64,000 nt of DNA from an uncultured Acidobacteriota bacterium. Lineage in GTDB: Bacteria > Acidobacteriota > JAQAZP01. This document shows, one piece after another, positions 5,511 through 60,396 of this stretch. The notes beneath the pieces are model-generated. The model was not told the origin of the DNA. It did no database searches and saw only the letters and a list, made by a program, of their open reading frames with translations. The stretch is taken from the NCBI GenBank assembly GCA_963836075.1, contig CAWIIB010000009.1:1952001-2016000 (forward strand), given 5' to 3'. The translations under genes and the position numbers were made by a program. Every line of letters begins with the position of its first letter. The first letter of the stretch is position 1.

Positions 5511-7335
5511 TTATTCCTCCTCCCCGGCGGGCGTTGCATCATCGGCCGCCTCGGCTTTCTTCAGCTCTTCCAGTCGCGCGGTGGCGAGGGCCAGCATTTT
5601 CTCCAGCTGTTCCTTTCGCTCGGGGTCTTCTGCCTGATTCCAGGCCCATGTTGATCATCCCGATCGCCTGCTCCAGCATGGCCGGGTCCTCGATGGCCTT
5701 GATCCGCTCCTCCATCCCGCCGCCTCCGGGGCCGCGTTTCCGCTCTTCGCCGGCCGGGGCATCCTTGGTATTGATGATCAGCACGTTTCGCTGGTCGGCG
5801 GCGAAATAGGTGTTGGCCACCCGGCGGATATCCTCGGCAGTCACGGCGTCCAGCATCAGCGGAGCCCTGTTCACCTCTTCCCAGTCACCCATGGCTGCGT
5901 TCGGCGCGATGAGGAAGAGGATGCCGATCCCGCCCATGATGTCCATGAAACGGATGTTGCTCACCTTCTCCTGATTCTTCACCTTCTGCAGCTCTTCCGG
6001 GGTCACCAGTTCGGTCTGCAGTTCCACCACCACCTCGTGGATCGCCGCTTCAAGGTCCTCGGCTTTCACCCCGGCAAGGCCCTCGGCGCTGATCTGGAAC
6101 GCGCCGGCATAGCGGCGCGAATCCTGCGCGGCGCGGATGCCCAGGCCACCGCCGCCGCGCATCCCCCGGCCGCCGCCACCCATGGCGCCCTTGGCCAGGC
6201 CCTTTTCCTCAACAAGCTTTTTGTAGAGGCGCCCGGTCTTGCCGTTCATGATGCCGGCCAGCAGCTCCAGGGCGTAGCTGTCGTCATGTTTCCAGGCCAC
6301 GGTGTGATACCAGACTTCGGCCTGGGGGTCGGTTTCGGCCGCGGCGGTCAGCCGTTTCTCGCCATACTGCCGCTCCTCCAGGGTCACCACCTCGGGGGGC
6401 TCCTTGGCGCCGCGGGGCAGCCGTTCGAAGTACTTCCGCACCTGCACCATGGTCTCTTCGGGCTCCAGGTCGCCCACCAGGATCAGGGTCAGGTTGTTCG
6501 GGGCGTAGTAGGTGTCAAAGTAGTCTTCGGCCTGCTTGCGGGTGATGCTGTCCAGGTCGGAGGCCCAACCAATCACGTCCCAGTGGTAGGAGGAGGATTT
6601 CCAGAACATGGCCAGGAAGTCCTCGTCGATCAGCCCGGTGGGTGTGGAGTCCACACCCAGGCGACGCTCCTCTCGCACCACGTTCCGCTCGGAGTAGAAT
6701 TCGCGGAACACCGGGTTGAGGAAGCGGTCCGACTCCATCCAGCAGAAGAGCTCCAGCTTGTTGCTGGGCAGCCGGACGAAATACATGGTCATGTCGTAGG
6801 AGGTCATGGCGTTGAGGAACGACCCGCCGTTTTTCGTATAGGTCTCGTCCAGCTGGTCCTTGATGATCAGCTCCCGCTGTTCCTCGATCAACTGGTCGAA
6901 CTCGGTCTCCAGCTCACGGAAGCGGCCGGTCTTGGCTTCGGGGTCGAGCATGTCCTCGATCTCGCCCCGCCGCAGGGCCTCGCGCATGATCCCCTGCTCC
7001 ACCATCATCTCGGCCCGCAACTCGTCCAGCCGGGCCATGATCTCCTTGTCCCGGGCGTAGTCCTTGGTGCCGATGGTCTCGGTCCCCTTGAACATCATGT
7101 GCTCGAAGAGGTGGGAGATGCCGGTGATGCCGGTGATCTCGTTGGCCGAGCCCACCCGGGCGACGATGGCGGCCATGAAGGTGGGCGTTTCGTGCTTGGG
7201 CACGATCAGCACCTGCATGCCGTTCTCCAGCATGTATTCCGTGGCGTCCACGGTCTGGGCGGCCGCGGGCATGGCGGCAACGCAGGCCATTGCGAAAACC
7301 GCAAGGGCAATGGCGGTGAGACGGATCCTGTTCAT
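5511..7335 (-). CDS. M16B zinc peptidase, catalytic subunit (apparent 1-nt frameshift near 5640)
   Basis: HLFEH inverted zincin motif, signal peptide. Removing one base near 5640 gives NQAEDPERKEQLEK...GEEE-TAA, ending 2 nt before the next ATG with a GGAGG RBS. Confidence 0.85.
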
Positions 7336-7672
7336 CAACCTCTCCTTCTTGGTTTGGCGTTGGCCCGCGAGGAGGGATGGCAGTGTCAACGACCTGTTAT
7401 TGAAATTGCCGGCCCGGAGGGGGTCGTCCCCGGGAATTGGTGTAAATCTTGTAAATTGTTACTGATGAAATGTCAAGTGGGACAGTCTGTAACTGGGCAA
7501 TAGACAACTTCTATCATTTATATAGACGAAAGCACTCCCGGCAAGGTAGAATAAGGTATTCCAGCTATGGAATCGGCTTGCCCCGTAGAGGTAGGGCGGG
7601 CCGGCCGGACTATTCAATGGTTGTAACCTGGGGGCACGCCGCCCCGAAAATCAAACTGAGGAGAAACGGGAC

Positions 7673-8353
7673 GTGAAAAAGATACTGGCAGTTTTGACCA
7701 TCGTTGCTATCGTGGGTCTCTTTGGTTATGTCGCCAGCGCCGACTGCGGCAAGTGCGATGCCCCGAAGACCGGAGAAGCCAAGGACAAGGCCGGCTGTTG
7801 TGCCGGCAAGACCGCCGAAGCCACCGCCGCCTGCACCGCCGGCAAGGCTGCTGACGCCAAGGGCTGCGCCACCAGCTGTTCGGCTGCCACGGTTGCCGAC
7901 GCCAAGGGCTGTGCCTCCACCTGTTCCGCCGCCACCGCTGCCGCGGCCGCCAAGGGCGGTTGCTGCGCCAGCAGTTCCGTGCTCAATGCCGGCGACAAGG
8001 ACAAGGCCGCTTGCGCCGTGGGCGCGGACGGCAAGTGCGACCCCACCAAGTGCAACCTGACCCTCTGCGGCAAGTGCGGCGAGTTCAAGGGCTGCGGCAA
8101 GTGCTGTTCCGCCGACGCCAAGGTCTGCGAGAAGTGCGGCCTGCACACCGGTTCCACCGGCTGCTGCAAGATGGAGAAGGGCGCCGACGTGACCATCTGC
8201 AAGTGCGGCGAGATCAAGGGCAGCGAGAACTGCTGCAAGGAAGGCGTGGCCACCTGCAAGGCTTGCGGTCTGCATGCCGGCTCCCCGGGCTGCAAAGCCT
8301 GCTGCGAGTCCAAGGACGCCCACAAGGCCAAGGAAGCAAAGGTGACCGCGTAA
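7673..8353 (+). CDS. Secreted Cys/Ala/Lys-rich metallothionein-like protein
   Basis: GAGGAG RBS, GTG start, signal peptide, 32 Cys in 226 aa, terminator downstream. Confidence 0.75.
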   Translation: MKKILAVLTIVAIVGLFGYVASADCGKCDAPKTGEAKDKAGCCAGKTAEATAACTAGKAADAKGCATSCSAATVADAKGCASTCSAATAAAAAKGGCCASSSVLNAGDKDKAACAVGADGKCDPTKCNLTLCGKCGEFKGCGKCCSADAKVCEKCGLHTGSTGCCKMEKGADVTICKCGEIKGSENCCKEGVATCKACGLHAGSPGCKACCESKDAHKAKEAKVTA

Positions 8354-8377
8354 GCGCTGTCGCCCCGGACGGAAATG

Positions 8378-8412
8378 AAAAGCCCCCGAGTGCTGGTCAC
8401 CCGGGGGCCTTT
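8378..8412. terminator. Bidirectional terminator between convergent genes
   Basis: GCCCCCGAGTG/CACCCGGGGGC stem with A-rich and T-rich flanks. Confidence 0.65.
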
Positions 8413-8440
8413 CTCTTGTACAGCGTCGTCCGCGCCCGGG

Positions 8441-9253
8441 TCAGGGCGCGATGGCGAAGTCGAAGTAATCGGCGCTCCAGAGGTCGTCGGGGGGCAGCCC
8501 CACCTGGACCCGGATCTTGTAATCGCCGGTGGGCACGTCCATGGGGATCACGTGTTCCTTGTTAAACATCTTTTCTTCGCTGAGCGTGAAGTCGAGGTAG
8601 GCCATGGCCAGCCGGCGGGTGTTGCCGGCGGGGAAGACAGCCTCCACCACCACGTAGGCTGCGATGGGCATCAGGGTCCAGCTCTTGACCTTGACGTCAT
8701 AGCTGATGGTTTCACCGAGGGCATAGCTGTCGGCTTGAGGCAGAATCGTGGCCACCAGTTTCGAACGCACGGCATTGATCGTCGCCAGCACCTGGCTCTC
8801 GGTGTAGCCCTCCTCCCAGAACTCCACGGTCTGCGCATAGTCGTGGTTCAGCACGTAGTTCAGCGGGATGTAGTTGTTCTGGGCGTAGAGGGAGTAGATC
8901 GAACCGTCGTCGAGAAGAAAGAGGATGTCGGGATAGGTGTCCTGGTAGCCCTGGACGATGCCCAGGCTTTCCTGGTAGTTGAGGGCAATGATCTGGATTC
9001 CCTTGGCGGCGTAGTCGGTGGCGATGGCTCCGAGCTGCGGCAACTCCGCAACACACCCCCCTCACCAGGAAGCCCAGAAGTTGAGCATGACGGTTTTTCC
9101 CTGGAAGTCACTGAGACTGTGCGGGTTTCCGTTCACATCATAGGCCGTGAATTCGATGGCCGGGTCACCGATCTGCGGGCCGGCCATAACAGCCAGCGAG
9201 AGGCAGAGGGTGAGCCCGACAGCAGCGGCAAGCACACCTTTTCGTCTGGTCAT
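8441..9253 (-). CDS. Selenocysteine-containing TlpA/redoxin-family thiol-disulfide oxidoreductase with C-terminal beta-rich domain (270 aa, Sec64)
   Basis: ORFs 9062..9253 and 8441..9043 are in frame and read LNFWASW-TGA-GGCVAELPQL, so UxxC replaces the TlpA WCxxC motif; signal peptide. Confidence 0.9.
9034..9052 (-). promoter_or_regulatory. Putative bacterial SECIS hairpin
   Basis: GUUGCGG-AGUUG-CCGCAGC stem-loop starting 9 nt after the UGA at 9064-9062. Confidence 0.65.
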
Positions 9254-9567
9254 CTTTCACCTCTTCAAGTGTTGCGGCAAGGAAAACATCAAGTGGAAAC
9301 TGTCTGGGCCGGCAAAACCCAGAGCCTGTAATTCCAATTATACACGTATGGAATCCAATGCTGAAACCGGTTTTGCGGTTGTGCTACCATCAGCCGCTCA
9401 GAAACTGCGCACTTTACAGTTATTGAGCTTTCTTTACAGTATTTTATCCGGGCTTGAAGCTTGTTAATCCGTTTGTGCCGTCTAATGGGTGTGGCGGAAC
9501 CGGGAACGCACCCGGGCTGTGCCCGGGTGGACGGGCCGGCATTGTTCAGGCCGGAAAGGAAGAGATC

Positions 9568-10904
9568 TTGAAAAAGTTCATCACCATCGTGTTTGTTCTG
9601 GCCATCATCGGCGTTGCGGGCTGGTATTTCCTCCAGGATACCGGCGGCGAGGTGTCGACGTATCGCTTTGTCACCGTGGAGCGTGGCGATCTGGAATCGG
9701 TGGTCTCCACCACCGGGACGCTGGAAGCGGTGACCACCGTGGAGGTGGGGACCCAGGTCTCGGGAATCATTTCCGAGATCTTTGTCGACTTCAACGACAC
9801 GGTGCGCAAGGGCCAGGTGATCGCCCGCCTGGATACCACCCTGCTGGAGAGTGCGGTGCGGGACTCGGAAGCCAACCTCGAACGGAACGAGGCCCAGCTG
9901 CGCCAGGCCCAGCGTGAATACGCCCGGATCGAGGGGCTCTACGAGAAAGAGATCGTGGCCGAGAACGAGTTCAACAGCGCCCAGTATGACCTGGAGGTGG
10001 CCCGGGCCAGCGTCAAGTCGGCCCGGGTGGCCCTGGAGAAGGCCCGGCAGAACCTGGCCTATGCCACGGTCTATGCGCCGATCTCCGGTACGGTGATCGA
10101 GCGCAACGTGGACGTGGGGCAGACCGTGGCCTCCAGCCTCTCCACCCCCCAGCTCTTCCTCATCGCCGATGACCTGGCCAAGATGCAGATCCTCGCCTCG
10201 GTGGACGAGAGCGACATCGGCAAGATTAAGGAGGGGCAGGTGGGACGGTTCACCGTGCAGGCCTACCCCGACGACAGTTTCGAGGGGATGGTGCGCCAGG
10301 TGCGGCTGCAGTCCTCCATGGAGGAGAACGTGGTCAACTACACCGTGGTGGTGGACGTGGAGAACCCGGACGGCACCCTGCTGCCCGGGATGACCGCCAC
10401 GGTGGACTTCCTGGTGGAGACGGTGAGCGACGTGCTCAAGGTGCCCAACGCCGCTCTGCGCTTCCGGGCCACCGAGGAGATGTTCGCCGAGGCGCGGGAG
10501 CGGATGCAGGCCCGGCGTGAAGCCCGGCAGGGCGGGGGAGAAGGACGGCAAAGACCAGAGGGTATGGGCGGCGGCAGACCGGAAGGCGGCAGACCGGAAG
10601 GCGGCAGACCCGGCGGCGGTATGGGTGGCGGGAGGATGGGCGAGATGTTCAGCGGTGGACAGATGCCGGACGGCATGGCCCTGCTCTGGTATCTCGACGA
10701 AGAGGGGATTTCTCTCCATGTCCCCGGTGCGCACCGGGATCAGTGACGGAACAGTCCACCGAGATCATCGGCCGGCGGGTGGAGGAGGGGATGCAGATCA
10801 TCGCCGGAGTGACCAAGAGCGAGACCTCCAGCGGTTTCACCAACCCCTTCCAGAGTCAGAGCCAGCAGCCCCGCCGGGGCGGCCCGCCCCGCGGAGGGTT
10901 CTAG
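9568..10904 (+). CDS. MacA/HlyD-family efflux periplasmic adaptor (two apparent frameshifts near 10705 and 10750)
   Basis: VEVGTQVSG, APISGTVI and LLPGMTA motifs; the tail VRTGISDG/QSTEI...PRGGF-TAG continues in shifted frames. Confidence 0.8.
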
Positions 10905-10909
10905 CCCCC

Positions 10910-11614
10910 ATGGACAACGGCACCGTCATCCGCACCGCCGGGATCACCCGGCACTACCAGCTGGGCGCCACCACGGTCAAGGCCCTGGACGGCATCGACT
11001 TTTCGGTGGCCACCGGGGAGATGATCGCCATCATGGGCGCCTCGGGCTCGGGCAAGTCGACCCTGATGAACATCCTCGGCTGTCTCGATTCGCCCACCGC
11101 CGGCACCTACGAGCTGGAGGGAACCCGGGTGGACGGGATGAGCCGCGACCAGCTGGCCGACATCCGCAACCGCAAGATCGGCTTCGTCTTCCAGGTCTTC
11201 AACCTGCTGGCCCGCACCTCGGCCCTGGAGAACGTGGAACTGCCGCTGCTCTACGACCGCACCGGCCGCAAGCTCGAAATCGCGGAAGCTGGCCGCCGAG
11301 GCGCTGGAGCGGGTGGGCCTGGCCGACCGGATGGACCACGAGCCGAGCGAGCTCTCCGGCGGCCAGCAGCAGCGGGTGGCCATCGCCCGGGCTCTGGTCT
11401 CCCAGCCGCCGATGATCCTCGCCGACGAACCCACCGGCAACCTGGACAGCAGCACCACCCTGGAGATCCTCGACCTCTTCAAGGAGCTGAACCGCCAGGG
11501 GATCACCGTCCTGCTGGTGACCCACGAGCAGGAGGTGGCGGCGGTGACCCGGCGGGTGATCACGCTGCGCGACGGACTGATCGTCAGCGACGAGCCCACG
11601 GGGAGGGCCTCCTC

Positions 11615-11618
<4 letters not shown>
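10910..11618 (+). CDS. MacB/LolD-type ABC ATP-binding protein (apparent frameshift near 11279)
   Basis: Walker A GASGSGKS in one frame; LSGGQQQR and ILADEPTGNLD in the next frame. Confidence 0.85.
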
Positions 11619-12832
<1,214 letters not shown>

Positions 12833-25442: not shown

Positions 25443-25621
25443 TGAGCATTCCTTATCAACCAACCGGAGACAACACTTGACGTTCAGGCGGGAAAAACCT
25501 ATTCATATAACAAGACTTTTTTCTTAAATGACTCCGGGAAGTTCTCGATAAATTGAATCAACCTTTATCTGCGCGATGGGATGAGTATCCCGTTTGTCAG
25601 AAAACCTTGGGGAGAGCACCA

Positions 25622-28600
25622 ATGGGAAAGCAGCATGACAATTTCAGAGGGCGGATCTGGATCATAGTGATAACACTGATGCTCATCTTTGGTTCATTGG
25701 GGAGTCCAGCAGCTTATGCCGGATCCAATCAAATAGAGCTCAGCATAACGCCGGGTGACTATGACATCCTGGTGGACGATGAAGGCTTCCACTATATTTC
25801 CATGCTTGCCCCGGGATACGGAGTAGTGGGTTCACCCGGAGACCCTGTTCTTCCGGAGCGCATCCTGGAAATTGATGCTCCCGAGAATATTGATTGGTCC
25901 AGTGTTGTCTTGACAGTGAACATCGTCGGATCGGAAGTTCTTGCCGGACCATACAACATCCGCCCCACGGATCCTGATCGAGCGGTGATTGCCGCCGATG
26001 ATCCGGCGGACAACATAGAAATTACCGACTGGGGCGTCAACAAATCGATCGTGGACGGTCGGAACGTTTACGTTTACGGCAACGATGCCGACTATCCGGA
26101 AGACACGGTGGTGATGATCCCCCACACCCAGGGGAAAAGGCCATCGGATGTCGGAGGGTTTGTGGAGCTGGAATATCTGCGTCTGGCCTACCGGCCGTTT
26201 TTGTACAATCCGGTCAGCCAGGAATTGCTGCTGCTGCAGTTGGTGGATATCGTTATCACCTATGAGGTCGAGGATGGGTTCTCCACTCCGGCCAAAAAGA
26301 AAAAACGCAGCGCTGACTATGTGATCGTCACCAGCAATGACATCGTGGCTAACAGCCAGCGGCTGGATAATTTCATTTACCTCAAGGAGCAGCTCTACGG
26401 TCACAGCGTCCTGGTGGTAACCGAAGATGACTTCGGACCCCTCACCGGTCAACAACCCAATGGAACAGCGGAAAAGATACGTGAATGGTTGATCCAGAAT
26501 TATGTCTCGAGCGGGATCGACTATGTTCTGTTGATCGGCGACCCCGATCCTGACGATCCATTCGACCCGGGGGATACCGTCGGTGATATCCCGATGAAGG
26601 ACTGCACACCGTTCTATTTCAGCTGGCAGTACCGGGATTGCCCCACGGATTGGTTTTATGCCGACCTCACCGGCAACTGGGACCTTGACGGTGACGGTTA
26701 CTTTGCCGAATCCATGGATATCAACGCCCCGCAAAGCCCTGAATGGCCGACGATCAATACCGATTACTTCGCCATCCGTTGGGATGGCTACATGCACTGT
26801 GATTTCACCGAGGAGTATGAATTCCATACCTTCAGCGATGGGGGTGTCAGGCTTTACATCGACGGGGACCTGGTCATCGATAACTGGGATGACAACCTGG
26901 AGCATCCCCCAACCAATGACTACGCGCAGCTGAATATGACCGAAGGAGATCATGAACTTCGCGTTGACTACAAGGAGCACACCAAAGACGCGATCATCGC
27001 ACTCTTTTGGAAAACGACGGTACCGAAGACTGATCCCAACTACCTCGAGCACCAGGTGATTCCGCTTGATCATCTGAAAGATGAGACGAATTCGTCCCCG
27101 GGGCTTACCGGGCGCTACTACAACAACATCTGGTTTTCGGGTGATCCCGACCTGGTGCGCCCGGACGGGGAGATCGTCAACTATGTCTGGGGCATCGGTG
27201 ACCTGGGACCAGGCGGGCCGGATACGGGCGCCGAACTGTTCGTGGGGAGAATTCCGGTTTACGGAAGCGACTACGCACAGCTCGATGCAATCCTGGACAA
27301 GATCATCCTCTATGAAACGGCTCAGCCGGGGGACATTTCCTGGAGATCGTCGGTCCTGCTGCCCATGGAACCGATGAGCGCAACCGTGGAGTGCTACCAA
27401 CTGGGCGAAAAAATCAAGAATGACATCGCCATACCGCTGTCTTTCGACTACTACCGGATCTATGAGGAAGATTACGGGGTCGGGCCGGAAATGACCCCGT
27501 GCAACTATGACAATGTCAGAAATGAATGGCCCAACGGCTACGGGCTGACCTCGTGGGCGACCCATGGCAACATCGCTGTCGCCGTCGATATTTTCAGGTC
27601 TGAATATGCGCCTGAACTGGACGACTCCAGACCGGCCTTCACCTGCCAGGCCTCATGCCTCACCGGTTATCCTGAAAGCGACAACAACCTGGCATATGCA
27701 CTGCTCAAAAATGGAGCGATCGCAACGGTGGCAGGCACGCGGGTCACCATCTATGGCGGCGAATGGGAAGCATACGACCCGACATCGGGCAGATACGCCC
27801 CGTTCAGTTTCTTCTACACGAAAGGACTCACCCTGGACGGGTTTCCCGCGGGCGCCGCGCTGGCCCAGCAGAAAGCGCCAATCGCGTATGCCACCCAGAA
27901 CGAGTTGAGTTTCAATCTCTACGGCGACCCGGAATGCTACCTGCTCTATACGGTTCCCAATTCACCGCCGGTTGCGGACGCTGGAGGTCCCTACACGGAA
28001 AACGAGGGAACCGCGGTGATCCTGGATGCCGGCAACTCCTTTGACCCTGATGGCGGCGACCTCGAGTATCGATGGGACGTGGAAAATGACGGAATCTGGG
28101 ATACTTCGTGGTCCGCAAGCCCGACCCACTCGCATACGTGGTGTGACGACCACACCGGTACGGTGAAAGTGGAGGTGCGTGACCCGTTGGGGTTGACCGA
28201 CGAGGACACGGCAAGCGTGACCATCCTCAATGTGCCGCCGGTTGTTGATGCCGGCCCGGATCAGAATGCCGATGAAGGTCAGCTTGTCTATTTTTCCGGC
28301 AGCTTCTTCGACCCGGGATGTGACACCCACATCACTCATTGGGATTTCGGTGACGGGACCTTTGATTCCGGATCCCTGACCACAACCCATGCTTACGGTG
28401 ACAACGGGGTATACACCGTTACGCTCACCGTAACCGACGATGATGCGGGCGTGGGGACCGATACCCTGGTGGTGACAGTGGCCAACGTCGACCCAACAAT
28501 CACCGACATGCTATTGGACCAGCCGAACCAGCAATTTATCCTGCCCCATGTTCACGACCTGACGTTTACCGGGCTTTTTACCGATCCGGGGTGGCTTGAC

Positions 28601-29107
28601 ACCCACACGGGGACCTGGGACTTTGGCGACGGCACGATCATCCCCGGTATCGTTACGGAGGAAAATATCGAACCCGACGCAACCGGAACGATCACCGGGG
28701 ACCATGTCTACACGGCGCCTGGAGACTACACGGTGACCGTGACCCTTCTGGATGATGACGGAGGAATGGACAGCGAGACCATGCCGGTCACTGTGGTGGA
28801 TGAATTCGGCGCCCTGGAAGACATCCGTGAATATATCATGGACCTTCCGGACAGTGCATTCGTGAACAATCCGGACAGAAGGAAAAACGCGCTGGATAAC
28901 AAGCTGAACGCGATCCGCTCGATGCTGGAGGGCAAGAACTATCACGGAGCGATTCAAAAACTGATTAAGGATATCCGTTCAACGGCAGATGGCTCCGTCG
29001 ATGGGAATCCAAACAACGACTGGATAACAGACCCGGAGGCACAGGTACACATCTGCATGAAAATAGATGATCTGGTGGCCTATCTGGAACTGTTGATGCA
29101 ACTGTAA
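25622..29107 (+). CDS. Gingipain-like C25 cysteine peptidase with propeptide, inserted PA14 domain and PKD repeats
   Basis: PGDPVLP propeptide, YVLLIGD, VGRIP, THG and ASC catalytic dyad, NLYGDP; PA14 RWDG...SDGGVRLYIDG; WDFGDG PKD motifs. Confidence 0.85.
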   Translation: MGKQHDNFRGRIWIIVITLMLIFGSLGSPAAYAGSNQIELSITPGDYDILVDDEGFHYISMLAPGYGVVGSPGDPVLPERILEIDAPENIDWSSVVLTVNIVGSEVLAGPYNIRPTDPDRAVIAADDPADNIEITDWGVNKSIVDGRNVYVYGNDADYPEDTVVMIPHTQGKRPSDVGGFVELEYLRLAYRPFLYNPVSQELLLLQLVDIVITYEVEDGFSTPAKKKKRSADYVIVTSNDIVANSQRLDNFIYLKEQLYGHSVLVVTEDDFGPLTGQQPNGTAEKIREWLIQNYVSSGIDYVLLIGDPDPDDPFDPGDTVGDIPMKDCTPFYFSWQYRDCPTDWFYADLTGNWDLDGDGYFAESMDINAPQSPEWPTINTDYFAIRWDGYMHCDFTEEYEFHTFSDGGVRLYIDGDLVIDNWDDNLEHPPTNDYAQLNMTEGDHELRVDYKEHTKDAIIALFWKTTVPKTDPNYLEHQVIPLDHLKDETNSSPGLTGRYYNNIWFSGDPDLVRPDGEIVNYVWGIGDLGPGGPDTGAELFVGRIPVYGSDYAQLDAILDKIILYETAQPGDISWRSSVLLPMEPMSATVECYQLGEKIKNDIAIPLSFDYYRIYEEDYGVGPEMTPCNYDNVRNEWPNGYGLTSWATHGNIAVAVDIFRSEYAPELDDSRPAFTCQASCLTGYPESDNNLAYALLKNGAIATVAGTRVTIYGGEWEAYDPTSGRYAPFSFFYTKGLTLDGFPAGAALAQQKAPIAYATQNELSFNLYGDPECYLLYTVPNSPPVADAGGPYTENEGTAVILDAGNSFDPDGGDLEYRWDVENDGIWDTSWSASPTHSHTWCDDHTGTVKVEVRDPLGLTDEDTASVTILNVPPVVDAGPDQNADEGQLVYFSGSFFDPGCDTHITHWDFGDGTFDSGSLTTTHAYGDNGVYTVTLTVTDDDAGVGTDTLVVTVANVDPTITDMLLDQPNQQFILPHVHDLTFTGLFTDPGWLDTHTGTWDFGDGTIIPGIVTEENIEPDATGTITGDHVYTAPGDYTVTVTLLDDDGGMDSETMPVTVVDEFGALEDIREYIMDLPDSAFVNNPDRRKNALDNKLNAIRSMLEGKNYHGAIQKLIKDIRSTADGSVDGNPNNDWITDPEAQVHICMKIDDLVAYLELLMQL

Positions 29108-29221: not shown

Positions 29222-31006
29222 TCATGGTGCAATGGCGGTGACCGTCACGTTCGCACTGTCCGTATCTCCTGACGGCATATAGGGCGGCTGGTTGTACGGC
29301 GCCTGGGTCACGTCTTCCAGCTCCAGGGTGAAGCCGTTGTGCCCGATCATCGAGCTGATGGCGGGGATGGTGCTGTACCAGGACACGTTGAAAGCTTCCC
29401 CCGGCGAAAGCGTGGTGGATCCCGCACGCCAGTTGTTGACCTGTGAGCCGTTGGCCAGCAGGATGTTCATCCGCCCCGCCACCCGCCGGAACTGGTCGTC
29501 CAGCAGGTTGTACATCGTGGCCCGGAACCGGGTGCTGAAGGGCGCCGTGCCCGAGCAGGGCAGGCAGCCCAGGGCGGCGTTGATGGTTCCCAGGCCGCCG
29601 AGAAAGCCGTTGGCGTCGACCCACTGGGCGTAGATGTCCGTATCGACTCCAGAGCGTTCGTCGGACCAGGTGATGATCGCTCCACCCGACCCGTCACTGG
29701 CCACCCTGGACCAGTATTGGTCTTCGACTGCACTGCAGATCGGGATGCCGTTGGCGGCCCAGTGGGTGTTGCCGAACCAGTCCACGTGCTGGGCGTAGAT
29801 GTCCAGTGCGCCTGACGTGAAGCGATCGTCCGTCCAGGAGATGATTACGCCGTCGTTTTCATTCCGTGCGATAGACGGGTCAGATTGGTCATTGAATGCG
29901 CCGCAGACCTGGATCCCCCCTGCGAGCCAGCGCTGCCCGCCGTTGGTGTTGATCCTTTGTGCGTAAATGTCAGCATCCCCGTTGCGGTTGTCCAGCCAGG
30001 CGAAGACCGCTCCACCAGTGTCATCCGGAACCACTTCGATATATTGGCCGTTGTCATTGGCCGCACTTACCGGTACCCCGTCCACAGCCCACTGAACGGT
30101 CCCGTCCGTGCCGATCTTTTGCGCGTAGACTCTGTATTCCAGCGGAACGGGATCGCCCACCCAGCCGATGATTGCTCCACCGGTGCTCGCGCTGACGATC
30201 CGGTGCCATTGCTGGTCTCCCGCGGCGGTACAGATCGCCACGCCGCCGGCCGTCCACTGGGGCACACCGGAACCGTCGATCCGCTGGGCATAGATGTCGT
30301 AATTCGAGGCGCGATTGTCTACCCAGGTGATGATGGCGCCCCCGGCCCCGTCGTTTGTCAGCAAAGGGTCGTATTGGCCCTCGGCTTCCGTGCAGATCGG
30401 AACACCGTCGGTTGTCCATTGAACCACTCCGAAGCGGTCCACCCGCTGAACATAGATGTCGCGGTCGTTGGTTTCGTTGTCGCGTGAGTCATCCCAGGCG
30501 ATGATCGCGCCACCGGCACCATCGCTTATCAGCCTTGGATCATACTGGATTGACCCAGCCGAGCAGATCGCCACGCCGTCGGCGGTCCAGAGAAGCATTC
30601 CGCCGGCGCTCACTCGCTGGGCATAGATATCGGCAGGGGACGTCGGCCCACCATACCAGGTGATGATCGCACCGCCGGTGCCGTCGCTCACCAGAGCCAT
30701 CTCGTAGTTGATGTAGCCTGCGTTATAGATCGAGACACCGTCTGGGGCCCACAACTCATTCCCCTCGGAGTCCAGTCGCTGGGCAAAGATCTCACAGTCC
30801 AACCCTGATCCGAAGCGCTCGTCCCGCCAGCAGAGGATCGTGCCGCCGGCCCCGTCACCGATGCTCCACATGTATTTCTGGTCCCCGATCTCGGTGCAGA
30901 CCGGGGTGTTCACGGTGGGGTCCTGGGACCAGGCCGCAACCGCCGGCACTGCGCACATACCGGTAAGGATGACGATGATGATCATTGTGATGGCATTGAG
31001 TTTCAC
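29222..31006 (-). CDS. Secreted beta-propeller repeat protein with C-terminal module A
   Basis: About 7 repeats of DGxGGAIIxWxDxR...DIYAQR; GGAGGAG RBS before GTG; ends PYNQPPY...TAIAP. Confidence 0.8.
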   Translation of the reverse strand: MKLNAITMIIIVILTGMCAVPAVAAWSQDPTVNTPVCTEIGDQKYMWSIGDGAGGTILCWRDERFGSGLDCEIFAQRLDSEGNELWAPDGVSIYNAGYINYEMALVSDGTGGAIITWYGGPTSPADIYAQRVSAGGMLLWTADGVAICSAGSIQYDPRLISDGAGGAIIAWDDSRDNETNDRDIYVQRVDRFGVVQWTTDGVPICTEAEGQYDPLLTNDGAGGAIITWVDNRASNYDIYAQRIDGSGVPQWTAGGVAICTAAGDQQWHRIVSASTGGAIIGWVGDPVPLEYRVYAQKIGTDGTVQWAVDGVPVSAANDNGQYIEVVPDDTGGAVFAWLDNRNGDADIYAQRINTNGGQRWLAGGIQVCGAFNDQSDPSIARNENDGVIISWTDDRFTSGALDIYAQHVDWFGNTHWAANGIPICSAVEDQYWSRVASDGSGGAIITWSDERSGVDTDIYAQWVDANGFLGGLGTINAALGCLPCSGTAPFSTRFRATMYNLLDDQFRRVAGRMNILLANGSQVNNWRAGSTTLSPGEAFNVSWYSTIPAISSMIGHNGFTLELEDVTQAPYNQPPYMPSGDTDSANVTVTAIAP

Positions 31007-31241
31007 TGCTGGCTCCTCCCTTGATAGAGCATATAAAGGCATGGGCGGTGAGTCCCGAAGAACCGGGATCATTGCCCCTCATACAGATAAGCGACATGGA
31101 GGTGAAAATCCGGACAGGGGATTTTGTGGTTGGATATCAGCCCGGCATTCAGGCCGCTGCCTTTTCTTTCAATATAGGGGTACGTTACGGTAGGAGGCCA
31201 GTGAAAAACCTGCAAATCAGCAGTGTCTGAGAAGCGAATTG

Positions 31242-32550: not shown

Positions 32551-33717
32551 TCAGGGTGCGATCCCGGTCACCGTGCAACTGTCCGAAGCCGTGTCGCCGG
32601 CCGGCGGGTAGGGTGGCTGGTTGTATGGCTCGGGGGTGACATCTTCGGCCAGCAGCAGGAAGTGGTTGTCCCCGATCACCGAACCGAGGGCCGGGATGGT
32701 GAGGCCAAAGGTGCTGGCGAAACTCTCCCCGGCCGCCACGTTGGTGTATCCGGCACGCCAGCCGGGGAACCAGGCGCCACCGGCCAGGGTGACGTCGATG
32801 CGGCCGGCAATCCGGCGCCGCTGCCCCTGGTAGAGGTTGTCCAGGGTCAGGGTGATCAGGGACTGGAACGGCACCGTGCCCGATGAGGGCGAGCAGTCCA
32901 GGGCGACGGAAACGGTTTCGCCGGGAACCGGGGATGTGTTGGGAACCAGGTTGTCCACGGCGGCCCGGTTGCTGCCCGAGGCTCTCAGCTGCAGCCACAT
33001 GGTGTCCCAGGTCTCCGGCCCGGCATCGGGATGCAGCCGGCCCAGCTGGAGGTTGATCCCCTGCAGTCCGCTCACCGCCTGGAACTCGGTGTCGCCGTCG
33101 GTGATGTTGAGATAGAACAGGCTCCCCGCCCCCTCTCCGCCGTTGGCGGTGAAGTCGATGCGCAGTTCCATGCGGTACCAGTCATTGCCGCTGTTTCCTG
33201 CGCCAAAGGGCGTGGATGTGGACGCGCCGAAGTTGGCCTCCCGCAGAGTGAAGTTCCTGTCGTAGTCGCCGAAGACCGGCCCCAGCTCGCCGCCGCTGCC
33301 GTTGCTGTAGGGGTCCTCTTCCAGGACGCCGTCACCGTCCAGGTCGTGGCCCAGTCCGAAGAGGGCGAGGTGCTCGCCGTTGAGCTCGAACCGGATCACC
33401 GCATCGGTGGCGGATGAGTTGAACGCCGTGAAACCGAATGCGGTATCGTTGGCCCGGGCGAGATAGACATCCTCGTCAAAGGCCACGGTGGGCAGCGGAC
33501 GGGCGACTTTTGTATCATTGCCGGTATCGTCGAGGTAGATCACACCATCGCCCTGGCCCGGTTTGTCCACCCAGTTGTCATGGCCGTCAATAAAACTGTG
33601 GATCGACAGGGATTCAAAATCGTAGACCTCGGGCGTCTGTGCCGACACCGGGGAGTTCCCGCAAAAAACAGCAATGATAAAAAGCGCGGCGGCCAATACT
33701 TTCCACGGGTGATACAT
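32551..33717 (-). CDS. Secreted hypothetical protein (beta-rich) with C-terminal module A
   Basis: Signal peptide; ends WRAGYTN...PYNQPPYPP...TGIAP. Confidence 0.75.
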   Translation of the reverse strand: MYHPWKVLAAALFIIAVFCGNSPVSAQTPEVYDFESLSIHSFIDGHDNWVDKPGQGDGVIYLDDTGNDTKVARPLPTVAFDEDVYLARANDTAFGFTAFNSSATDAVIRFELNGEHLALFGLGHDLDGDGVLEEDPYSNGSGGELGPVFGDYDRNFTLREANFGASTSTPFGAGNSGNDWYRMELRIDFTANGGEGAGSLFYLNITDGDTEFQAVSGLQGINLQLGRLHPDAGPETWDTMWLQLRASGSNRAAVDNLVPNTSPVPGETVSVALDCSPSSGTVPFQSLITLTLDNLYQGQRRRIAGRIDVTLAGGAWFPGWRAGYTNVAAGESFASTFGLTIPALGSVIGDNHFLLLAEDVTPEPYNQPPYPPAGDTASDSCTVTGIAP

Positions 33718-33786
33718 CTTCATCCTCATACGTTCAACCGCAAATTCATCAATTTCCAACTCTTCCGATTATACCCCTGAATATAA

Positions 33787-37266: not shown

Positions 37267-39556
37267 TCAAGGTGTATCGAAAATACCCCCCGCCACCGTC
37301 CCTCCGCAGAGCAGCCCTTGGTCGGCGTAGGCGTCGAACTCGACCACACTCATCGCTTCGGTGTACAGATTGGTGACCCGCCAGGCCGCAACCATGGCCG
37401 GCTCCCGGCTGTCCGGCCCCGGGACGGTGATGATATCGACGATCCCGTCGCCGTGGACGTCGGCGGCGGCCACGCGGACACCGCAGCGGGTGTCGTCATA
37501 CTCGTAGGCGAAGTAGTTCACCTCCGGCATCGCGGTGACCCCGGCGCCGTCATAGTGCCAGCCGCGCACCTGGGCGCCGAAAACGGGGGAGGGGCCCGGG
37601 CCGGTGAGGATCTCATCCCGGCCGTCACCGTCGATGTCGCCGCAGGCCACGTTGACCCCGTATCTCAGGGTGCCGTAGGCGAAGTAGCTGATCCCGGTGA
37701 TCGGCTGTGCCGCTGTACCGTCGATGTTCCAACCACGGACGTGGGGCCCGAACACCGGGCCGGGGCCGGCACCGGTGACGATCTCGTCGATACCGTCGCC
37801 GTCGATGTCGCCGCAGGCTGTGTTGACGCCCCACTTGAGGGTGCCGTAGGCGAAAAAGCTGACCCCGGGGACCGGCTGAACTGCAGCGCCGTCCACGTTC
37901 CAGCCGCGGACGTGGGGCCCGAACACCGCACCGGGCCCGGCGCCGGTGACGATCTCGTCGAACCCGTCACCGTCGATGTCCCCGCAGGCCACGTTCACCC
38001 CGTACCTGTTCGTGCCGTAGGCCAGGTAGCTGACCCCGGGCACCGGCTGGCCAGATGGGCTGAAGCCCCGGACGTGGGGGCCGAAGATGGCGCCCGGGCC
38101 CGGACCGGTGACGATTTCGTCCAGGCCGTTGCCGTCCAGGTCGCCGCAGGCCACGTTGGCTCCCCAGGCCTGGGCCCCGTACGCCGCCCACGATTCGAGC
38201 GGGATCTCGTCGCCCAGCGGATCGAAGCACCTGACCAGCGGCGGATTGATCGCCGCCGGCCCCGGGCCGGTGACCAGGGTCAGCACCGGGTAGTCCAACT
38301 CATCGTAATACGCGTGGAGAAATTCGTCCCAGGCCGTGTCGGCGGGGAAGTCGAGCTCTACCGCTTCGGTACTGCGGGTCGTACAGCCGCCCGCTCCGGG
38401 GAAAGGAAATGCTCAGGCCGCGGGCGTTTTCCTCGATCGACCCATGGCATTCGGCCACCACCGCGGTTTCCATGGCGGTGCGCACCGCCTGGAGGTCGTC
38501 GAGGATCACCGGGTCGTCGGTCAGTCCGGCCAGCTGTTCGGCGAAGTGGTGGACGTCGATCAGGCCGTAACGTTCGGCGCCCCAGAGGCAGAACTCCTGG
38601 GAGCGGTGGCGGGCCAGACGAATCGGATCGACCAGCGTATCGAGGCGGGGGATCAGGTCGGTGGCCAGCTGGTCGATGGCCGCGGCGGCCCCGGCCATTG
38701 CCGAGGTGTCGGTGGCGCTCATGGTCAGGTAGGTGTAGTCCTGATAGTAGTTGTTCTCCCCCACCAGCCGGATGAGCTCCGCCCCCAGCTCCGCGGACGG
38801 AGTGTCCGGCGCGGCAATGAGCGTGTCGCAGAAGCCGTCGAAAATCCCGTTCCAGCGGGCATATCCGCTCAGTTCCTCGCTGCCCACGTAGACCCCCACG
38901 CTCTCCCGCAGTTCGTAGACCGACTCGAAGCAGCCCATCAGGCAGGGGGCGGTGAAACAGAGCAGGTCCACCGGCCCCGCCTCGCCCAGCGCCAGCTGGA
39001 AATCGTTCATGGTCAGGATGTCGTCGCCGTCGGTTTCGTCAACGCAGGCGCCCCGCCAGGCGCCACCATGGTCGTAGCAGGCCAGCAGGTAGCGGTCTGC
39101 CGGGTAGTTTGCCTTCGCGTAGAGCAGGAAATCCCGCAGCGTGTCGGGGTGGCCCATGTTCAACTCGCCGAGGTCGTCCAGCCTGGTCATCTCGTGGTTC
39201 TCACCGATGTGCCAGATGTCGGCTTCCCTGTAATCCCCGTCCCTGAGAACGAGGACGTTGAGATTCGGTCCCGAGTGGGCGTCCCGGGCGAAATCGTTCA
39301 GCGGGTCGTAGGCGTAGTAGAAGTCGGCGTCGTCGTAGAGGAGGATGGTCCAGGTGGTGGCCCCGGGGGAAGGGTTGGGCCGTTCAGGCACTTCCACTGA
39401 CGGGCGGAGTCGGTGGACCGGCCGGTCCTTTGCCTCGAGGACGCGCAGGGAATCGTTCGGCGAGGGGTAGAACCCGCTTCCCCGGATCTCATCCCCCTTG
39501 GCGGTCGGAGGGAGAAGGACGATGGCCAGCAGCAGGACAAAGAGGGTGCGGATCAT
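37267..39556 (-). CDS. Clostripain-like (C11) peptidase with C-terminal module B (apparent frameshift near 38368)
   Basis: ELNMG, DHGGAW and APCLM motifs; removing one C restores collinearity with the paralog at 39553..41748. Confidence 0.82.
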
Positions 39557-41748
39557 TGGAGTGTACCTCCGGCAATGGTTCCCCCGTGATTCAGCCCCAG
39601 GTCGACGTAGGCATCGATCTCGGCCCGGTTGACCGCAATCACGGTACCATTGGACATGCGCCAGGTGAGAACCAGGGCCGGTTCGTCGGGGTCTGGTCCC
39701 GGGACGGTGAGTATCTCGTCGATGCCGTCGCCGTGGATGTCGGCGGAGGCCAGCTGGACACCGTAGCGGGTAAAAGCGAAATAGTAGGCGAGGAAGTTCA
39801 CTTCGGGCATGGGTGAGACCGAGACGCCGTCATAGCGCCAGCCGCGCACGTGGGCGCCGAACCGATTTGACGGCCCCGGTCCGGTGAGGATCTCGTCCCT
39901 GCCGTCTCCATCCAGGTCGCCGCAGGCCACGTTGACTCCCCACCTGTTGGTTCCGTAGGCGAAATAGCTGACGCCGGGGAGCGGTTGGGCCGCAGCACCG
40001 TCCACGTTCCAGCCGCGCACGTGGGGCCCGAACACCGTGCCGGGGCCGGCGCCGGTGACGATCTCGTCAAAGCCGTCGCCGTCCAGGTCGCCGCAGGCCA
40101 CGTTGACCCCCCACTTGAGGGTGCCGTAGGCGAAGTAGCTGACACCGGGGATGGACTGAACTGTCGTGCCATCCACGTTCCAGCCGCGGACGTGGGGGCC
40201 GAAGACCGCGCCGGGTCCGGGTCCGGTGACGATTTCATCGTATCCGTCCCCGTCCAGGTCACCGCAGGCCACGTTGGCGCCATATTTGTTTGTGCCGTAG
40301 GCCAGGTAACTCACCCCCGGGACCGGTTCGCCGGTGGGGCTGAACCCGCGGACGTGGGGGCCGAAGATGGCTCCGGGGCCCGGTCCGGTGACGATCTCGT
40401 CAAAGCCGTCGCCGTCCAGGTCGCCGCAGGCCACGTTGACCCCCCAGGCCTGGACACCATACGCATGAAAATGACCCTGCATGTCGCCGAATTCCACCGG
40501 GTCGAAGGTCCGGACCAGGGGCGGGTTCTCCGCCCCGGGACCGGGTCCGGTGACGATCATCTCCGCCGGCAGGCCCAGGGCGTCGTAGTAGGCGCCCAGG
40601 AACTCGTCCCAGGCGGTGTCGTCGGCAAAATCGAGCTGCACCGATTCATAGGCCGGGTCGTAGAGCGGCCCGCCACGGTGATAATAGACAGAGAGCCCAT
40701 GGGCCCGCGCATGGATTGGCCCGTGGCACTCGGCCACCACGGCGTCGTCGATGGCCGCTTGAACGCTCTCCAGGTCCTGGAGGATCACCGGGTCGCTGGT
40801 CAGGCCGGCGAGCTGATCGCAGTAATCGTGGAGATCCACCATGCCGAGGTGGTCCGCATACTCCTCCCCCATTTCGTGCGACTGGTTGCGGGCCAGCCGG
40901 AGCTCATCGGTGAGTGAACCGAGGCGGGGGATCAGGTCCTGCCCCAGTCTGTCCACGGCCGTGGCAGCCACGGTGGTGGCGCTGGTGTTGACGGCGCTCA
41001 TGGTCAGGCGACGGTGGTCCTCCCAGTAGTCGTTTTCATCCACCAGCCGAATGATGTCCGCCCCGATGCTTGCTGACGAGTCATCCGGGGAGGAAATGAG
41101 CCGGTCACAGATATCGCCCATGATCTCCAGCCAGTAGATGTAGCCGCTCAACTCTTCGCTGCCCACGTAGATGTCGACGCAGTCCCGCAGCTCGTACGCC
41201 GATTCGATGGCGCCCATGTTGCACGGCGCGGTGAAGCAGATCAGGTCCACCCCCCCGGCCGCGGTGAGTGCCAGCTTGAAGTCGTTCATCGAAAGTTTGT
41301 CGTCGCCGTCGGTGTGGTCGCGGCACGCCCCGGACCAGCCTCCGCCGTGACCGTAGGCGGCCAGCAGATGGCGGTCGGCAGGATAGTGTGTCTTGCCCCA
41401 TTCGAGGAAGGAGAGCAGGGTGTCGGGGTGGCCCATGTTCACCTCGCCCCAGTCCTCGAGGTGGGTCAGTTCGTGATTCTGGCCGACGTGCCACAGGTCA
41501 GCCGGTCCCGCATCCCGGTCCCGCAGGACGATCACGTTGAGGTTCGGCCCTGAGTGGGCGTCCAGGGCAAAGGGCTCCAGCGGATCGAAGGCGCTCTCAA
41601 AATCGGCGTTGTCGTAGAAAAAGAGTGTCCAGGTGGTGCCGCCGGGGGATGGTTCAGACGCCGCAGCGGGAGCGCAGACAAGCAGGGCCAGAACCAGGAC
41701 GGCGGTGAGATTCATCCGGCTCAGAAAGCGCGGGGTAAAACGTAGCAT
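39553..41748 (-). CDS. Clostripain-like (C11) peptidase with C-terminal module B
   Basis: EVNMG, GHGGGW, APCNM, GSEE and GLSVY motifs; GDLDGDG repeats. Confidence 0.85.
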   Translation of the reverse strand: MLRFTPRFLSRMNLTAVLVLALLVCAPAAASEPSPGGTTWTLFFYDNADFESAFDPLEPFALDAHSGPNLNVIVLRDRDAGPADLWHVGQNHELTHLEDWGEVNMGHPDTLLSFLEWGKTHYPADRHLLAAYGHGGGWSGACRDHTDGDDKLSMNDFKLALTAAGGVDLICFTAPCNMGAIESAYELRDCVDIYVGSEELSGYIYWLEIMGDICDRLISSPDDSSASIGADIIRLVDENDYWEDHRRLTMSAVNTSATTVAATAVDRLGQDLIPRLGSLTDELRLARNQSHEMGEEYADHLGMVDLHDYCDQLAGLTSDPVILQDLESVQAAIDDAVVAECHGPIHARAHGLSVYYHRGGPLYDPAYESVQLDFADDTAWDEFLGAYYDALGLPAEMIVTGPGPGAENPPLVRTFDPVEFGDMQGHFHAYGVQAWGVNVACGDLDGDGFDEIVTGPGPGAIFGPHVRGFSPTGEPVPGVSYLAYGTNKYGANVACGDLDGDGYDEIVTGPGPGAVFGPHVRGWNVDGTTVQSIPGVSYFAYGTLKWGVNVACGDLDGDGFDEIVTGAGPGTVFGPHVRGWNVDGAAAQPLPGVSYFAYGTNRWGVNVACGDLDGDGRDEILTGPGPSNRFGAHVRGWRYDGVSVSPMPEVNFLAYYFAFTRYGVQLASADIHGDGIDEILTVPGPDPDEPALVLTWRMSNGTVIAVNRAEIDAYVDLGLNHGGTIAGGTLQ

Positions 41749-47661: not shown

Positions 47662-49410
47662 ATGGCAAGGTGGCTGTGCATCAAGCTGCCGTCGGTGATT
47701 CTCCTGTCCCTGCTGCTGGTGGTTGCCTCGGTGTTTTCCGGGGCAGCATTTGCGGCGGAGGATCTGGAGATCATCCAGGCGGTGAAGAACGGTACCCCCG
47801 TTTCGGGGGGCAATCGGGTGGTCATGGGCGAGGTGTTCGCCCGCGACGGCTGAGCGTACTGTCCCTCTGCGGAGCAGGGGATGATAGACCTCTTGGCCAA
47901 CTTCGGTGACGACGAATTCGTCTGTGTCATGTACTACTCCACCAGCGGCTGGTCCTGCCCGGAGCACGGCGACCGTGCCGGTCTCTACGGTGTGAGCGGT
48001 GTGCCCGACGCTTATTTCAGCGGTTATCTTAACTCTCTCGGCGGGCTGCCCAGTGGCTCGATGTATGACTACTACCTGCCCCTGGTGAACCAGGTCATGG
48101 CCAATCCCGGTATGTTGGCAATGTCACTGGACATGACCATCGATGCCGGTACCATCACCGTCAACGGCACCATCGAGGCCCTGGAAAACGCCCCCGATGC
48201 CCTCGTCTACGTCGTGGTCTACGAAGAGGACTCGGGCCGTGAGCCGAACCTGGCCCGTGGCTTCCCGGTGTGGGAGACCATGCTCACCGCCACCACCACC
48301 GGCGCGACCCAGGACATCAGCGGCACCCTGGCCGTGGGCACCGGCTGGAACGAGGCCAACCTCCACGCCATCATGTTTGTCCAGGCCCTGCAGGACTTCA
48401 CGGCCACCCGGATCGTCACCGGTCCCGGCCCCGGCCCGGACAACGTCTGCCGCCTGGCCGCCTGGGTCCCGGAGAATCCAGGCACTGCCGACGTGACCAT
48501 CAACGCATACGGCGTGGACAAATACGGCGTCAACGTGGCCGTGGGCGACCTCACCGGCGATGGCTTTGACGAATTCCTCACCGGTCCCGGACCGGGCGCG
48601 GTCTTCGGCCCGCAGGTGCGCGGTTTCAACTACGAAGGCGACCAGCTCCCCGGCCTCAGCTATTTTGCCTATGGCACCCTGAAATACGGGGTCAACGTGG
48701 CTGCCGGCGACTTGGACAATGACGGTGTGGCCGAGATCCTCACCGGCGCCGGACCGGGCGCGGTCTTCGGCCCCCACGTTCGCGCCTGGAAGTACAACGG
48801 CAGTGAGGTGAGTTCCATGCCGGGGATCAGTTACTTCGCCTACGGCACACCAAAGTATGGTGTAAACGTGGTCTGCGGTGACATCGACGGCGACGGTTTT
48901 GACGAGATCATCACCGGTGCCGGACCGGGCGCGGTCTACGGCCCGCACGTGCGCGGCTGGAACTACGACAATGACACCCTCACCTCGATTCCCAGTGTGA
49001 GCTTCCTGGCTTACAACACCAACAAGTTCGGCGTAAACGTGGCCTGCGGTGACATCGACGGTGACGGGATGGACGAGTTGATCACCGGTGCCGGCCCCGG
49101 CGCGGTCTTCGGGCCGCACCTCCGTGGCTGGAACATCGACGGCGGTACGGTCACGGCCATTTCCGGAATCAACACCATGGCCTTCGACTACACCGAGTGG
49201 GGTATCAATGTTGGTTGTGGAGACGTGGACCGTGACGGCATGGACGAGATCTTTGTCGGTGCCGGTCCCGGCGAGGCCCACGACGCCTGGGTCCGCGGCT
49301 TCAACTATGACGGCGGCACGCTGGAGATGGTGTATGACTTCACCGCCTACGGCGCCCCGGTCATCACCCACGGTGTCAACGTGACCTGTGGCTACTTCTT
49401 CGCCCCGTAA
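47662..49410 (+). CDS. Secreted selenoprotein: Omp28-like thioredoxin domain (UAYC) with C-terminal module B (582 aa, Sec64)
   Basis: ORFs 47632..47853 and 47881..49410 are in frame: RVVMGEVFARDG-TGA-AYCPSA; YGVSGVP cis-Pro motif; GAGGAGG RBS and signal peptide. Confidence 0.88.
47861..47882 (+). promoter_or_regulatory. Putative bacterial SECIS hairpin
   Basis: GUCCC-U(bulge)-CUGC-GGA-GCAG-GGGAU starting 7 nt after the UGA. Confidence 0.7.
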
Positions 49411-53178: not shown

Positions 53179-53368
53179 CCGTGGGATAGTCTATTGCTAC
53201 GGGTCGGCGTACCGAATCACTGCCGTTTACCAAGCCCACAGCATGGGCGGCCTGATCTCCCGTTCCACCGGGTTGCGGTCCGCCGGCAGAAAACCTATAT
53301 TGAACGTGATCAAAGCGGTTCCCGCCTGTGGTTTTATTAATCCTGGTTACGAGTCGGGGGTATCGGTC

Positions 53369-60365: not shown

Positions 60366-60396
60366 TGCCCTTACTCCTTCATGCGTTGATTGAAAA

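Follow-up and report, generated by a model that had tools for sequence, protein, structure and literature searches.

The question raised by this locus is whether two open reading frames, separated by a single TGA on the reverse strand of a 64,000-nucleotide stretch of DNA from an uncultured Acidobacteriota bacterium (the whole stretch is referred to here as the window), are in reality one gene in which the TGA encodes selenocysteine (Sec), and what the domain at its C-terminus might do. A preliminary description had proposed an exported TlpA-like Sec-redoxin, the tail of which might be a distant version of a C-terminal tag, module A, carried by other proteins of the window.

Gene layout

Translation of the reverse strand from 9253 to 8441 gives 63 amino acid residues, a TGA at 9064-9062, a further 206 residues and a final TGA; the two reading frames first noticed do, therefore, lie in one frame. 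The internal TGA stands, as had been proposed, in place of the first Cys of the motif NFWASWCxxC, the context reading NFWASW-stop-GGC. Full-length tblastn reveals that the two closest relatives, L001 and L002, match residues 1-270 at 82-83%. Annotation divides in two what is very probably a single gene, for an exported redox enzyme that uses selenocysteine and whose general type is known. Its features are collected in Table 1.

The hairpin that separates the redoxin gene from its convergent, Cys-rich neighbour is unusually stable (z = -4.23; 0/200 shuffles equally stable) and is probably a terminator common to both genes. A consensus terminator scan found none and did not list this hairpin, and a promoter scan was uninformative.

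Table 1. Coordinates of the redoxin gene, its predicted elements and the recurrent C-terminal modules (window positions unless stated).
Feature	Position	Strand	Basis
Single CDS, 270 codons with one TGA read through	8441..9253	-	Translated frame, full-length tblastn
Shine-Dalgarno-like GAGGTG, 4 nt before ATG	9258..9263	-	Sequence
Predicted cleavable Sec/SPI signal peptide, residues 1-24	9182..9253	-	By inspection
TlpA/ResA-like redoxin domain, residues about 25-164	8762..9181	-	Pfam and PDB matches
Predicted selenocysteine U64 (in-frame TGA)	9062..9064	-	TGA in 8/8 aligned genes
Cys67, last position of U-G-G-C	9055-9053	-	
Bacterial SECIS element with a stem of 7 bp and the loop AGUUG (9045-9041)	9034..9052	-	
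YIPLNY loop	8855..8872	-	Invariant among compared sequences; aligned to ResA
C-terminal Ig-like beta-sandwich, residues 165-270 (module B)	8444..8761	-	AlphaFold2, fold neighbours, family matches
16-bp hairpin between redoxin gene and convergent Cys-rich gene	8377..8413	.	Stability
Module A	29222-31072	-	
Module A	32551-33759	-	
Module A	43705-46575	+	
Module A	53243-55249	+	
Module A (in L002)	6316-9537	-	
FG-GAP propeller module	37267-38298, 39553-41748, 47881-49410, 58299-60404, 60397-62472		

Conservation of the TGA codon

A scan of GTDB yielded seven related loci (L001-L007) out of 78 pattern matches, and with the window these make up the eight DNA sequences compared. The seven loci derive from Acidobacteriota, WOR-3 and unclassified metagenome-assembled genomes (MAGs): L001 is an Acidobacteriota MAG (82% identity), L002 shares 83%, and the other five loci, three of them titled WOR-3, share 37-44%. 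All seven possess TGA in the active-site column, which makes 8/8 genes over a range of 37-83% identity, and its flanks differ among the loci (ASW-U-GGC, QSG-U-GGC, AST-U-GTC, TSG-U-PTC). The alignment of Cys- and Sec-containing homologues, suggested at the outset as a check, keeps the TGA throughout the eight genes, and the same position is occupied by Cys, as W-x-x-W-C-x-x-C, in 78 of the 111 distant matches examined.

In all three pairwise comparisons among the window, L001 and L002, third-position differences form the largest class on either side of the TGA. Between the window and L001 the differences at the three codon positions are 4/1/15 upstream of the TGA and 6/6/22 in the downstream part of the redoxin. 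Neither half is thus decaying, and the UGA column is conserved across related genes that are under purifying selection.

A protein search found the gene's own 200-residue ORF together with eight close orthologues (61-80%). The annotation of all eight, and that of four distant proteins with a redoxin and a tail, starts after the active site, and CxxC occurs in none of them; the active-site half is missing from all 13 redoxin-plus-tail entries in the protein sets, including that of this gene.

If the TGA were a real stop, the locus would represent a pseudogene, two separate proteins (one of 63 residues, the other of 200 residues starting from TTG 9043) or part of a recoded genome. Gene callers do report the 200-residue ORF in all close relatives, and neither selA, selB and selD motifs nor a tRNA-Sec were found in the window or in L001-L007, which represent a small part of each genome; Rfam and ARAGORN returned no matches either. 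Two regular-expression matches to "SelD" were discarded, since they run antisense to an M16 peptidase gene. The same TGA, however, occurs in 8/8 genes down to 37% identity with selection acting on both sides of it; the TTG sits inside the SECIS loop, and a split would break the thioredoxin fold right where the active site lies. The commonest stop is, moreover, TGA itself, which ends 12 of the 18 window genes and occurs in frame in none; its use as an ordinary stop in this organism excludes whole-genome recoding. A real stop is accordingly scarcely credible. That a selenoprotein is hidden here we hold to be almost certain, and the Sec assignment is strongly supported. The exported Sec-redoxin of the preliminary description is upheld by the TGA in 8/8 genes, the selection on either side of it, a conserved SECIS and a signal peptide recognized by inspection.

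The SECIS element

The hairpin reported 9 nt after the TGA was found at 9052-9034 of the reverse strand, where GTTGCGG-AGTTG-CCGCAGC follows a 9-nt spacer. Bacterial SECIS elements are characterized, in the accessible text of PMC13188914, as possessing a loop of 3-9 nt with G at position 1-2, a stem of 4-16 bp, a distance of 16-37 nt from the UGA and a minimum free energy of at most -7.5 kcal/mol. This stem-loop has a 5-nt loop (AGUUG) with G at position 2 and 7 bp, lies 16 nt from the UGA and has an energy of -9.9 kcal/mol. Taken alone the hairpin does not exceed what chance would give (four windows, z = +0.17 to -1.55), and a SECIS-like rule is passed by 268 of the 1925 TGA triplets of the window (14%); its stability by itself was rejected as evidence for a SECIS. 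The hairpin carries weight because it is conserved across the related genes.

What all eight genes have in common after the TGA is GCGGAGTTRCCGC. The 6-bp aligned stem is 97.9% paired over 48 cells, and RNAalifold predicts the same stem. Stem pair 27-41 is CG in five genes and UA in three; its covariation score was reached by 2/500 shuffles, and all slid controls scored lower. The eight sequences form two related groups, so that this covariation amounts to about one event, and it coincides with amino acid changes (V/R, Q/R). Codon usage is also frozen: Ala69 is GCG, Pro72 is CCG and Leu71 is TTR in 8/8 genes, TTR making up 5% of the Leu codons in the 18 window genes, and none of the 12 other invariant columns of four- or sixfold degenerate residues keeps one codon.

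Redoxin domain and active site

Two Pfam families match the read-through protein above the cut-off and across the TGA, namely Redoxin at 60.9 bits and AhpC-TSA at 57.6 bits. A search of PDB revealed ResA as a match to residues 29-160 (E=4.8e-13), and the best solved relatives of the domain are ResA, TlpA and DsbE-like proteins. The UGA is aligned with Cys of the homologues and homology runs on across both sides. The active-site context, NFWASW-U-GGCVAELP, conforms to W-x-x-W-C/U-x-x-C-x-x-E-x-P and is followed by a downstream Pro loop, YIPLNY, which is aligned to the Pro in the "PLPTSF" loop of ResA and which we take to be the cis-Pro loop. The data support a Sec recoding signal, an intact redoxin fold and a terminal module separate from it; the AlphaFold2 model of the redoxin half is of low confidence (pLDDT mostly under 55).

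No NCBIfam family reached its cut-off (ResA, 75.4 of 170 bits; TlpA, 51.5 of 230). The WAxxUGC selenoprotein NF041054 is likewise ResA-like with a W-A-x-x lead-in and scored 37.6 bits against a cut-off of 300; its motif is U-G-C, whereas U-G-G-C is found here. With ResA, TlpA and DsbE (PDB 1st9, 4nmu, 1jfu; E about 1e-13) the protein shares the active-site context, the Pro loop and an export signal, but it carries Sec for the first Cys, a G-G dipeptide and an additional Ig tail. Proteins of the TlpA/ResA type retain an uncleaved N-terminal membrane anchor, whereas this one is apparently cleaved. The G-G dipeptide is no guide to redox potential.

The near parity of AhpC-TSA with Redoxin, together with a weak match to GSHPx (24.7 bits, below the cut-off), raises the prospect of an exported selenium peroxidase, Prx-like or GPx-like, in place of a protein-disulfide oxidoreductase, and a "Prx-like thiol:disulfide oxidoreductase, UxxC" figures among the selenoprotein families in the accessible text of PMC13188914. 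The best solved relatives, however, are ResA, TlpA and DsbE-like proteins, and the peroxiredoxin motif PxxxTxxU, as given in the available part of a review, is absent, the site here reading W-x-x-W-U-x-x-C-x-x-E-L-P. We consider a peroxidase unlikely.

Relationship to known selenoproteins

This class of selenoprotein is already known, since UxxC families appear under cd02966, PF08534 and PF00578 in the accessible text of PMC13188914. The protein described here has in common with these redoxins the thioredoxin-like fold, UxxC, a SECIS just after the UGA and the same Pfam families, but a cleavable signal peptide combined with a terminal Ig module is not among the architectures in that text. The main text of the BSepDB paper (PMC13326102) mentions neither TlpA, WOR-3 nor Acidobacteria; its database or supplements may hold members. 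The available part of bioRxiv 2022.07.06.499078 provides precedents for selenoproteins that carry signal peptides and have been annotated in truncated form. A literature search, whose coverage lay outside most subscription journals, revealed no paper on the redoxin-Ig architecture or on the terminal modules. The chemical class is known; the architecture is covered by no curated family.

The C-terminal domain

The tail comprises 106 residues, which AlphaFold2 models as a beta-sandwich over residues 166-269 (strands E166-E269; pLDDT 76-91 in most 10-residue blocks). Its fold neighbours are Ig/FnIII-like with Z of 12-13, among them AlkC (5vi0; Z 13.4, rmsd 1.6, 102 aligned residues), RbmA (4be5; Z 13.3, rmsd 2.6, 104 aligned) and CARDB (3idu; Z 12.5, rmsd 2.4, 99 aligned). 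The only Pfam match is to MG2 (E=0.015), and the ESM Atlas returned unnamed clusters at 0.93, below the recognition threshold, with SlaA-like proteins in 16% of one cluster.

A search of 1.84 billion proteins with a profile built from seven tails yielded 59 representatives. The tail family was defined as those 28 of the 58 new representatives having a best single domain of at least 28 bits; the 30 left out are mostly multi-repeat Ig proteins, and there is no sharp boundary between the family and generic Ig repeats. A word-indexed search among proteins of 474-2000 residues had given nothing in 78 candidates, a limit of sensitivity, as the full HMM search later found long tail proteins. The domain lies within 7 residues of the C-terminus in 22/28 members, 14 of which have a separate N-terminal part; the partners include C25, peptidylarginine deiminase-like (PAD), S8, C13 and Omp28 as well as FG-GAP, Kelch and metallo-beta-lactamase domains and, in four further proteins, a truncated redoxin half. 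In the remaining 6/28 the domain is internal, three of these copies standing directly before a T9SS-type C-terminal domain (CTD). The last residues of the family are conserved in shape (F-x-F-x-V-x-P). The tail belongs to this Ig-like family, which has no name, stands apart from module A and is carried at the C-terminus by many unrelated secreted enzymes.

The more distant Sec-redoxins end otherwise. In L003-L007 the redoxin is followed by two repeats, labelled CARDB-like by inspection, and a terminal domain, which in L004-L007 matches FlgD_ig above the cut-off; four of the five distant loci thus have an FlgD-Ig end on the Sec-redoxin. Many neighbours of these redoxin genes have similar tails.

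Relationship to module A

Module A is a terminal Ig domain of 119 residues with 224 matches (120 of them listed) on very varied exported enzymes, and it has no Pfam or NCBIfam family. Among the 120 listed proteins, 102 end in AP and 114 possess a Cys pair. The four module-A proteins of the window carry WRAG and PYNQPP, with PFNQPP in one. Its model is confident (pLDDT 97.6), and the ESM Atlas suggests CARDB at 0.90, below the recognition threshold. Module A is in its own right a strong candidate for a sorting or attachment tag.

The likeness of the tail to module A was correctly described with regard to its length and to the missing WRAG and PYNQPP, but the "AP-stop" ending is incidental and was discarded as a link: the eight close orthologues end in ISP, ATP, ITP, ATP, ATP, VVP, VTP and VTP, the last Pro alone being common to them. 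Both domains are terminal and have the same Ig-like fold, as compared through PDB neighbours and not by direct superposition; 32 of the top 50 neighbours are common to both, including RbmA 4be5, AlkC 5vi0, dextranase 5axg and CARDB 3idu. By comparison, the signature motifs of module A, its Cys pair and its P[YF]NQPP loop are not found in the tail.

Profile comparisons depend upon depth. A module-A profile from 120 sequences gave the tail 2.3 bits (E=0.06 among seven tails), and HHalign with shallow profiles gave 0.1-0.3%, or 0.1% for the seven close tails alone. The HHalign comparison proposed beforehand therefore failed with close tails and succeeded with the deep family, which reaches 84.5% (E=7e-6, 61 columns), and 91.3% (E=9.6e-7) with a 21-sequence subset of terminal copies. 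Reversed controls gave 0.4%, column-shuffled controls at most 6.4% in 30 trials, and nine control profiles against module A at most 0.8%. The tail profile scored at least 10 bits on 37 of 119 reported module-A sequences and on 0/112 reversed ones. Six of the control profiles gave 94-99% against the tail family, these having been drawn from the tail profile's own matches (CARDB/NPCBM/MG2-like).

These HHalign values, set against the reversed and column-shuffled controls, the common fold neighbours and the occurrence of both domains in the same genomes (window and L002) would fit a degenerate copy of module A that uses the same pathway. The 2.3 bits obtained with the module-A profile, the missing WRAG, PYNQPP and Cys pair (the last in 114/120 module-A sequences) and the existence of much closer relatives of the tail elsewhere argue against such a copy, which we judge very improbable. 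The suggestion of a distant version of the tag survives in that the tail family is a weak sister of module A, both being distantly related members of a broad Ig group, and fails in that the two are not one tag. Generic Ig repeats of the CARDB/NPCBM/MG2-like kind are at least as similar to the tail family as module A is.

Export and proposed function

Residues 1-24 consist of a basic N-region, a hydrophobic core and an A-V-M-A end, with a hydropathy peak of 2.25 over 19 residues from residue 6-7; homologues end in AVLA, AAQA and AALA at this position. The single hydrophobic stretch ends in an A-x-A-like site, which suggests cleavage after it and no membrane anchor, and by inspection the peptide is predicted to be a cleaved Sec signal. 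The distant loci do not conserve the RR pair, which makes Tat export unlikely. The window also encodes a DUF481 protein, presumably an outer-membrane barrel, which suggests a two-membrane envelope.

The best explanation, and in our estimation a likely one, is an exported thiol-disulfide oxidoreductase of the TlpA/ResA fold with an attacking selenocysteine and an interchangeable Ig tail, acting in the envelope. During translation the stem-loop 16 nt after UGA64 would serve as the SECIS, a role that is strongly supported, and SelB would bring Sec-tRNA so that translation continues. The signal peptide would lead to export through SecYEG and be cut after residue 24, leaving a soluble envelope protein in place of a membrane-anchored TlpA. 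By analogy with the family, the U64 selenolate would attack disulfides of other exported proteins and Cys67 would resolve the mixed bond. Family members are re-reduced by carriers of the DsbD/CcdA type, and a membrane electron carrier of this kind may serve the enzyme; no electron donor gene was found adjacent to the redoxin gene. The enzyme would then reduce or isomerise envelope disulfides, possible substrates being, speculatively, the Cys pair of module A and the exported neighbour with its 32 Cys. The Ig tail, as an interchangeable terminal module, may co-locate the enzyme with other module-bearing exported enzymes in an envelope or surface compartment.

Gene neighbourhood and a second candidate

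The convergent neighbour (7673-8353, +) encodes 226 residues with a signal peptide and 32 Cys, metallothionein-like or disulfide-rich, and matches no Pfam or NCBIfam family. In L001 and L002, copies 77-80% identical lie close to the redoxin gene, and no match was found in L003-L007. The HlyD/ABC efflux operon (9454-12832, +) contains ORFs that appear frameshifted around 10700-11600 and run into each other; the equivalent in L001 has separate intact ORFs, and the frameshifts are possibly sequencing errors.

A second UxxC candidate is the Omp28-like FG-GAP protein at 47662-49410 (+), with TGA at 47851-47853 in the context RDG-U-AYC. It has a signal peptide, an Omp28-like domain and a C-terminal FG-GAP propeller, and scored 41.4 bits against NF045500 (cut-off 200). 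RDG-U-AYC aligns with a Cys homologue (E=4e-7), and a SECIS-like stem-loop lies 16 nt after the TGA, the same distance as in the redoxin gene. This is probably a second hidden selenoprotein, judging from its sequence.

The FG-GAP propeller, with GPGPGAVFGPHVRG repeats, constitutes a third recurrent C-terminal module and sits on clostripain-like, PNGase F-like and Omp28-like proteins. Tandem near-duplicate genes at 58299-62472 (-) have almost identical C-terminal halves, the first matching PNGase F domains. A C25 (gingipain-like) protein at 25553-29107 (+) with a PA14 insertion and PKD repeats lacks module A.

A possible sorting role for the tail

One further reading takes the tail for a genuine signal for secretion or sorting, comparable to the CTD of T9SS, with which the selenoenzyme would cross the outer membrane and work on the cell surface. 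The domain is terminal in 22/28 family members, its last residues are conserved in shape, and in L004-L007 its place is taken by FlgD_ig. It occurs on C25 gingipain-like and PAD-like proteins, enzymes of the kind that are T9SS cargo in Porphyromonas, and T9SS CTDs (Por_Secre_tail, FlgD_ig-like) are likewise seven-stranded Ig domains at the end of signal-peptide proteins with similar cargo (accessible text of PMC5445135). The tail, however, measures 106 residues whereas the CTD has about 75, and it matches neither Por_Secre_tail nor FlgD_ig (HHalign 1.1% and 0.4%). In P0268, P0298 and P0299 the module precedes a T9SS-type CTD, as would be expected of an ordinary binding domain or spacer; neither a translocon nor a sortase was identified. 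The lists of fold neighbours of the tail and module A contain no prominent T9SS CTD structure, though a relationship may exist all the same. Such a signal is conceivable yet doubtful, and a sorting role for the tail is speculative and unproven. Equally tentative is the wider proposal that module A and the tail family may be sister C-terminal sorting domains, in which case a T9SS-like route outside Bacteroidota would take a Sec disulfide reductase, and the Omp28-like selenoprotein with it, towards the surface.

Significance

The finding corrects a gene family that annotation has systematically split. With the short, frozen SECIS common to several phyla, Sec insertion in uncultured lineages can be put to a clean test, and the enzyme itself is an exported selenoenzyme whose catalytic domain has been joined, by shuffling, to different terminal modules. 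Module A and the tail family, two terminal Ig families that have neither a name nor a Pfam or NCBIfam model, may mark a route of secretion or surface attachment. Should the sorting route prove true, the Sec reductase would service disulfide-bonded secreted enzymes, its tag having been swapped for an FlgD-type CTD in WOR-3.
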